Part shown: one piece after another, positions 12,971 to 12,983 of the stretch
Position numbering within the stretch: position 1 is the stretch's first letter
Layout: each line of letters begins with the position of its first letter
From: a virus
Lineage: Duplodnaviria; Heunggongvirae; Uroviricota; Caudoviricetes
Virus record (IMG/VR): IMGVR_UViG_2872198387_000008
Strand: one strand, 5' to 3'
DNA: 13,463 nucleotides
Notes under the pieces: model-generated
The model's database searches: none
Told to the model about the DNA's origin: nothing
Seen by the model: the letters and a program-made list of their open reading frames with translations, nothing else
Position numbers and translations under genes: made by a program

Positions 12971-12983
12971 CCCCCCCCCCCCC
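12971..12983. repeat. C13 homopolymeric tract upstream of the invertase gene
   Basis: Thirteen consecutive C residues ending about 40 bp upstream of the invertase ATG (13023). Confidence 0.9.

Follow-up and report, generated by a model that had tools for sequence, protein, structure and literature searches.

A length-variable poly-C run between ipaHb and an invertase pseudogene in a decayed Shigella prophage

The prophage remnant, ipaHb and the invertase

The window, meaning the whole stretch of 13,463 nt analysed here, is a decayed prophage of Shigella or enteroinvasive Escherichia coli (EIEC), and its chromosomal neighbours are yfhH, tadA, mltF and purL. It carries the effector gene ipaHb and an invertase gene of the pin type in divergent orientation, with a run of thirteen C residues between them (Table 1). 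In related prophages, the place occupied here by ipaHb is taken by an invertible tail-fibre segment. Two unlike tail-fibre modules stand in tandem at 7586-10519, the first composed of a tail protein fragment and a Caudo_TAP assembly protein, and the second of a phage_tail_N fibre and a DUF4376 protein. The tail genes of the window showed no DNA similarity to the intact prophage located at the same chromosomal site.

Table 1. Coordinates of the features in and around the ipaHb-pin intergenic region
Feature	Position	Strand	Remarks
ipaHb	10700..12526	-	608-aa T3SS effector, NEL E3 ubiquitin ligase; LRR_TTSS and NEL domains; RefSeq names
Inferred ipaHb transcription start, C	12869	-	7 nt past the -10 hexamer; 5' UTR of 343 nt
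ipaHb -10 hexamer TATGAT	12881-12876	-	20 nt downstream of the MxiE box
Perfect 16-bp palindrome with 4-nt loop	12886..12921	.	MxiE box forms one arm; also a terminator-like hairpin on the plus strand
MxiE box GTACTGTTTTTTTAAAG of ipaHb	12918-12902	-	-49 to -33; run 52 nt upstream of the box
TTCTCCC	12967..12973	+	First 7 nt of the pix half-site TTCTCCCAAACC; weak evidence, possible relic
C13 homopolymer	12971..12983	+	Reads G13 in the ipaHb sense; isolates range from C6 to C21
21-nt orphan stretch GACTTTTGACGCAGTGTCTTG	12984..13004	+	Between the run and the start of pin homology; ipaHb islands only
Pin/Din-family serine invertase pseudogene	13023..13463	+	Catalytic domain only; 146 codons, then TAA

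The invertase gene is labelled in RefSeq as a pseudogene with an internal stop. Relative to PinE of e14, codon 147 has changed from CAA to TAA (Q147 stop) and the C-terminal helix-turn-helix is lost, its region lying beyond the stop and outside the window; Pfam recognises the Resolvase N-terminal domain alone in the product. The last bases of the window, 13461-13463, are the truncating TAA itself. In homologous records the invertase frame runs on to the full length of 184 codons; the assembly collection has 282 blocks in which exactly this 146-aa product is indexed. At the DNA level, the gene is 95-96% identical to e14 pinE and to pin of the intact same-site prophage, and this identity holds from 13005 onward only. 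Judged from its sequence, the invertase is dead.

The promoter of ipaHb lies near the run. Table S2 of Hall et al. 2022 (PMC9769918) gives the same MxiE box for the 1827-bp ipaH_2, at 376 nt from the gene start. In the work of Bongrand et al. 2012 (PMC3299695), the cloned part of the ipaHb UTR extends from +2 to +331, where +331 corresponds to -13 from the ATG, and a C was noted at the expected ipaHb start; the UTR length implied by their numbering agrees with that counted from 12869. In the same study, fragments from -57 to +11 gave T3SA-regulated activity, and ipaHb was the weakest of the MxiE promoters tested. Counted from the start inferred at 12869, the run occupies -102 to -114, and 45 bp separate it from the minimal promoter; the run does not belong to the MxiE-dependent promoter, since it is outside the sufficient -57 to +11 region. 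Read on the plus strand, the palindrome at the MxiE box gives a terminator-like hairpin followed by a T-rich tail, so that any transcript running rightward from ipaH-distal DNA could end there; alternatively, the palindrome could form a cruciform.

The C13 run and its length among strains

The thirteen C residues at 12971-12983 of the plus strand are uninterrupted, and 39 nt separate the end of the run from the invertase ATG at 13023, in agreement with an earlier note on this DNA, which had recorded a C13 run 40 bp upstream of the start codon. The same note called the run unusual, and the counts bear this out: it is the only C or G run of at least 8 in the window, none of 200 dinucleotide-preserving shuffles equalled the native count of C8 matches, and base composition predicts about 0.0003 runs of at least 13 per window, or about 0.1 per 4.6 Mb. 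The run recurs with the same flanks in about 30 independent public assemblies, and therefore it is not an artefact of the single assembly that yielded the window.

Records of the locus were collected from E. coli genomes, one PLSDB record, NCBI assemblies found by exact match to the 146-aa and 608-aa products, and a single scan of the genome collection. The carriers of the variable run are Shigella and EIEC. At the yfhH side, 23 records gave ten lengths, namely C6 (two records), C7 (two), C8 (three), C9 (two), C10 (two), C11 (two), C13 (three), C14 (two), C17 (four) and C21 (one), with the flanks CACCCAATTCT and GACTTTTGACGCAGTG unchanged across all of them. The expectation that the tract is prone to change its length was therefore confirmed, and an invariant length, which had been named as evidence against a role of the tract, was not what the comparison among isolates revealed. 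Among complete genomes, CP000266 has C8 and AE014073 has C14. C8 is shared by CP000266, CM001474 and CP026799, and C13-14 by the window, LR213455, CP026776, CP097828 and AE014073; the occurrence of the same lengths in several records is expected of a heritable difference and not of random error. In CP102221.1, which is counted among the 23 records, the T before the run is lost (AATTCT + C run) and the run consists of 18 uninterrupted C, so the TTCTCCC motif is not strictly conserved. The longest run, C21, is found with an ipaHb island in NZ_CP012732.1 ("plasmid unnamed" of S. flexneri 1a 0228, 25 kb). This record was deposited as a circular plasmid, yet it holds a chromosomal yfhH-type regulator and tadA, and it is probably a misassembled chromosome fragment.

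A paralogous ipaHb island lies next to pgl/ybhD and corresponds to ipaHb1 in the naming of Bongrand et al. 2012 (PMC3299695). It has the same flanks, its pin is cut after about 32 codons, and the run is C7 in 6 of 6 records. In two genomes, the run is C7 on the pgl side and C17 on the yfhH side. The range from C6 to C21 within identical flanks, together with C7 at every paralogue, argues that the run is a genuine hypermutable homopolymer with heritably variable length, and not an assembly artefact; this behaviour fits slippage above a length threshold.

Several sequencing platforms make errors in long G/C homopolymers, and the longest alleles, C17-C21, may stem from long-read assemblies. However, it is highly improbable that homopolymer errors produced the run or its variation. 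At least 6 C are present in about 30 independent assemblies, including the complete CP000266 and AE014073; the lengths recur between records; the same assemblies consistently give C7 at the paralogue; and in E. coli RMDEC465 an insertion sequence (IS) sits within the run. The suspicion of an artefact, voiced in the earlier note, thus fails for the existence of the run but may hold in part for the sizes of its long alleles: some of those from C17 to C21 probably come from long-read assemblies, and their exact lengths may include homopolymer sequencing error.

Origin and possible functions of the run

The run is located at a step in GC content between the AT-rich DNA upstream of ipaHb (30-34% GC) and pin. 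When the window was aligned to the intact same-site prophage and to e14, homology began at 13005, inside the pin leader; the 21 nt that follow the run are therefore not pin-upstream DNA of any known relative. In the "distant" mode of blastn, the segment 12527-13004 matched ipaHb islands only among E. coli genomes (6 genomes) and one Shigella record among plasmids, and had no match among phages. When the genome and viral collections were scanned for exact 18-mers, the matches were limited to the Shigella and EIEC copies plus chance matches in unrelated taxa.

The run had also been suggested to mark a recombination site bounding an invertible segment. The sites of the Din family (e14 pix, Mu gix, P1 cix and Salmonella hix) are likewise placed directly upstream of a Pin-type invertase gene, and TTCTCCC is the start of pix. 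However, the window has no recognisable second half-site, inverted partner or invertible segment, and its invertase is truncated. A Din-family site is 26 bp long, with two 12-bp half-sites and a 2-bp core, and the run does not have this structure; it is accompanied by a second, inverted site to bound the segment, and none lies within the window; and it is served by an active cognate invertase, whereas the nonsense codon at 147 of the present gene precedes the helix-turn-helix. The half-site TTCTCCCAAACC is present upstream of pin in e14 and in the intact same-site prophage, which carries two pix half-sites in inverted orientation, and a pattern search for the pix half-site in the window found no credible partner. 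No direct or inverted repeat of at least 10 nt pairs 12940-13022 with the rest of the window; therefore, there is no invertible segment here. With a 7-nt match to pix and no inverted partner of at least 10 nt, the supposed recombination site is at best a relic.

Such a relic would derive from the right-hand pix crossover site of an ancestral invertible tail-fibre segment: on replacement of the segment by the ipaHb cassette, the left half-site TTCTCCCAAACC would have decayed to TTCT followed by C residues, and slippage would then have lengthened this run. We consider this origin unlikely. The site TTCTCCCAAACCAACGTTTATGAAAA is found just upstream of pin in e14 and in the intact yfhH-side prophage, in the same orientation and with TTCTCCC on the side of the segment, and the window reads TTCTCCC in the right orientation where the run starts; moreover, at a length of C10, TTCT + C10 + GACTTTTGACGC would make up a 26-bp site with TGA at the pix half-site positions, according to a hand alignment. 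However, the match comprises 7 nt, 3 of which belong to the run itself, and the putative right half-site agrees at 5 of 12 positions versus about 3 by chance, in a hand alignment with the best spacing. The would-be site is 56 nt from the ATG versus 80 nt in e14, and the DNA between the run and 13005 is foreign to pin loci. In addition, the partner site was not found in the window, and five A-to-C changes would be needed. The proposal concerns the origin of the run only and is compatible with its neutrality at present.

A search of 12450-13100 for promoter-like sites found 3, versus 2.8 expected in shuffles, and none of them touches the run; the nearest one, at 12904-12933 on the plus strand, is located upstream of it. 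Synthetic alleles from C4 to C25 were then rescanned on both strands with a relaxed rule. None of the alleles from C7 to C25 has a hexamer pair across the run, nor is there at these lengths a sigma-70 promoter with the run as its 16-18 nt spacer; in the C4 to C6 alleles only, a weak minus-strand pair, AAGACA / GAGAAT (8/12), spans the run. An Rfam scan of 12400-13463 with E up to 1 detected no credible family and one spurious miRNA match. A coding frameshift switch was considered and rejected, as the open reading frames across the run have 21 and 41 codons only. The literature on homopolymeric tracts at ipaH or on poly-C tracts in Shigella offered nothing relevant. Hence the idea that tract length modulates invertase expression did not hold up: the gene is a pseudogene and neither a recognisable promoter nor a recombination site is present, so the regulatory reading of the run for the invertase is unsupported.

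A comparable run exists in the intergenic region of fadL and yfdF. It measures C9-11 and is length-variable in E. coli (matches of 256-258 nt to a 257-nt query), and it lies 49 nt upstream of the MxiE box TGAGCGTTTTTTGATAG of yfdF, a second MxiE-regulated gene, as compared with 52 nt for the run in the window and the ipaHb box. The yfdF box is functional and experimentally validated (Hall et al. 2022, PMC9769918). Both loci combine a functional MxiE box with a rare, long and variable C run some 50 nt upstream of it. They differ in that the fadL-yfdF run belongs to a core-genome locus, not a prophage, and in orientation: its C residues are on the sense strand of yfdF, whereas the sense strand of ipaHb reads G at the run in the window. 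The parallel could be a hint of function or a coincidence.

A broader regulatory reading takes the run as a phase-variable tract whose length tunes transcription of the invertase on the plus strand or of ipaHb on the minus strand, through promoter geometry, helical phasing of an upstream element, or the edge of an AT-rich domain silenced by H-NS. The strong length polymorphism and the position exactly at the GC step would suit such a role, as would the spacing shared with yfdF, the weak minus-strand pair of the C4-C6 alleles, and the silencing of MxiE-dependent genes by H-NS (Hall et al. 2022, PMC9769918). We nevertheless regard a phase-variable tract as unlikely, because one of the two candidate genes is a pseudogene, no promoter-like pair crosses the run at the lengths found in Shigella flexneri, and the ipaHb promoter works as a -57 to +11 fragment that ends short of it. 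The opposite sense-strand bases mean that the ipaHb and yfdF cases differ in orientation. Furthermore, the paralogous ipaHb1 copy is fixed at C7, and therefore ipaHb expression needs no variable tract. The spacing of about 50 nt at both genes, combined with H-NS silencing, lends an upstream or boundary role some, though low, probability. In its full form, the proposal would make the G/C homopolymers about 50 bp upstream of the MxiE boxes of ipaHb2 and yfdF functional upstream elements, perhaps the edge of the H-NS-silenced AT-rich domain or a length-dependent modulator; ipaHb2 expression would then vary heritably among Shigella clones, and the runs would also be dedicated landing pads for ISEc20/ISSfl4. 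This combination seems very unlikely.

Phase-variable homopolymeric promoter tracts are known from opc of Neisseria meningitidis (poly-C), porA (poly-G) and the fim genes of Bordetella (poly-C); in these systems the tract separates or adjoins the -35 and -10 hexamers of an intact gene, whose expression it sets. The present run resembles them as a long C/G run near a gene start, with strain-variable length and conserved flanks. However, here no promoter extends across the run, the gene that follows it is a pseudogene, and ipaHb has a separate promoter. In terms of a contingency locus, the run exceeds the length of about 8 at which a mononucleotide run is able to slip, and it is polymorphic between conserved flanks in the 23 records, but it is placed neither inside a credible open reading frame nor within the core promoter of an intact gene or beside it. 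It is thus of a known kind, a slippage-prone simple-sequence repeat, without the regulatory placement that defines a contingency locus.

The run is probably a neutral, hypermutable mononucleotide repeat in non-functional junction DNA of the decayed prophage; we infer neutrality from the absence of recognisable elements. The ancestral run would have been short, C6-7, as EIEC and the pgl-side paralogue still have it, and would have lain at the junction of the ipaHb cassette and the pin remnant. The yfhH-side copy in Shigella flexneri would then have outgrown the slippage threshold, and run length would now drift via slipped-strand mispairing during replication. Nothing detectable would be regulated by these changes, the invertase being dead and partnerless and the ipaHb promoter being a separate unit at least 45 bp away. 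From about 10 C, the run fits the C4|C6 context of insertion by elements of the ISEc20/ISSfl4 type, and in one strain such an element does lie within it. That no record falls below 6 C may be a sign of retention, or no more than a result of recent common ancestry.

The practical significance of the run is limited: it is a polymorphic marker at the ipaHb2 island and a trap for assemblers and variant callers. Effector regulation in Shigella is not, to our knowledge, recognised to involve contingency loci, and for this reason the run would matter more if its length changed ipaHb2 expression.

Poly-C runs as targets of an IS110-family element

In E. coli RMDEC465, an EIEC strain, an ISEc20-like element of the IS110 family is inserted inside the run, giving the arrangement C6 | IS | C7 (record positions 4050-5000). 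Copies of ISEc20-like elements at about 20 independent sites have C4 on the left and C6 on the right. The flank consensus was derived from 23 left and 17 right flanks, all distinct. On the left, C occupies each of positions -4 to -1 in 21-23 of 23; on the right, +1 is C in all 17 and +2 to +6 are C in 13-14 of 17. No conservation was detected in these flanks outside C4|C6. In two cases the IS-free allele was available from other strains, and it was an exact or near-exact join with an uninterrupted C10-12. The C4|C6 flanks and the C10-12 empty sites together indicate that a run of about 10 or more C is a target for the ISEc20-like element, which, from this comparison of insertion sites, appears to target poly-C runs specifically. 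The fadL-yfdF run is another ISEc20 target (record about 1690-1700 and 3150-3230).

The run in the window, with its thirteen uninterrupted C, has the form of an ISEc20/ISSfl4 target site, that is, a C run of about 10 in which insertion takes place between C4 and C6. It resembles the target sites of IS110-family elements in that an ISEc20-like element lies within this very run in RMDEC465. It differs in that the role of a target is a passive one for the run, and the run in the window is unoccupied. Shigella plasmids carry many copies of the ISEc20-like element or of ISSfl4, and the run is a natural target of ISEc20/ISSfl4 beside a virulence gene. Our literature search on the target choice of ISEc20 found no paper, and the C4|C6-specific insertion may interest those who work on target choice in the IS110 family.

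The element in RMDEC465 is internally deleted, measuring 951 bp versus 1449 bp, and its transposase is frameshifted. At its right end (record 4966-5007), the 13-bp sequence TAGGGGCACCCCC is tandemly duplicated.
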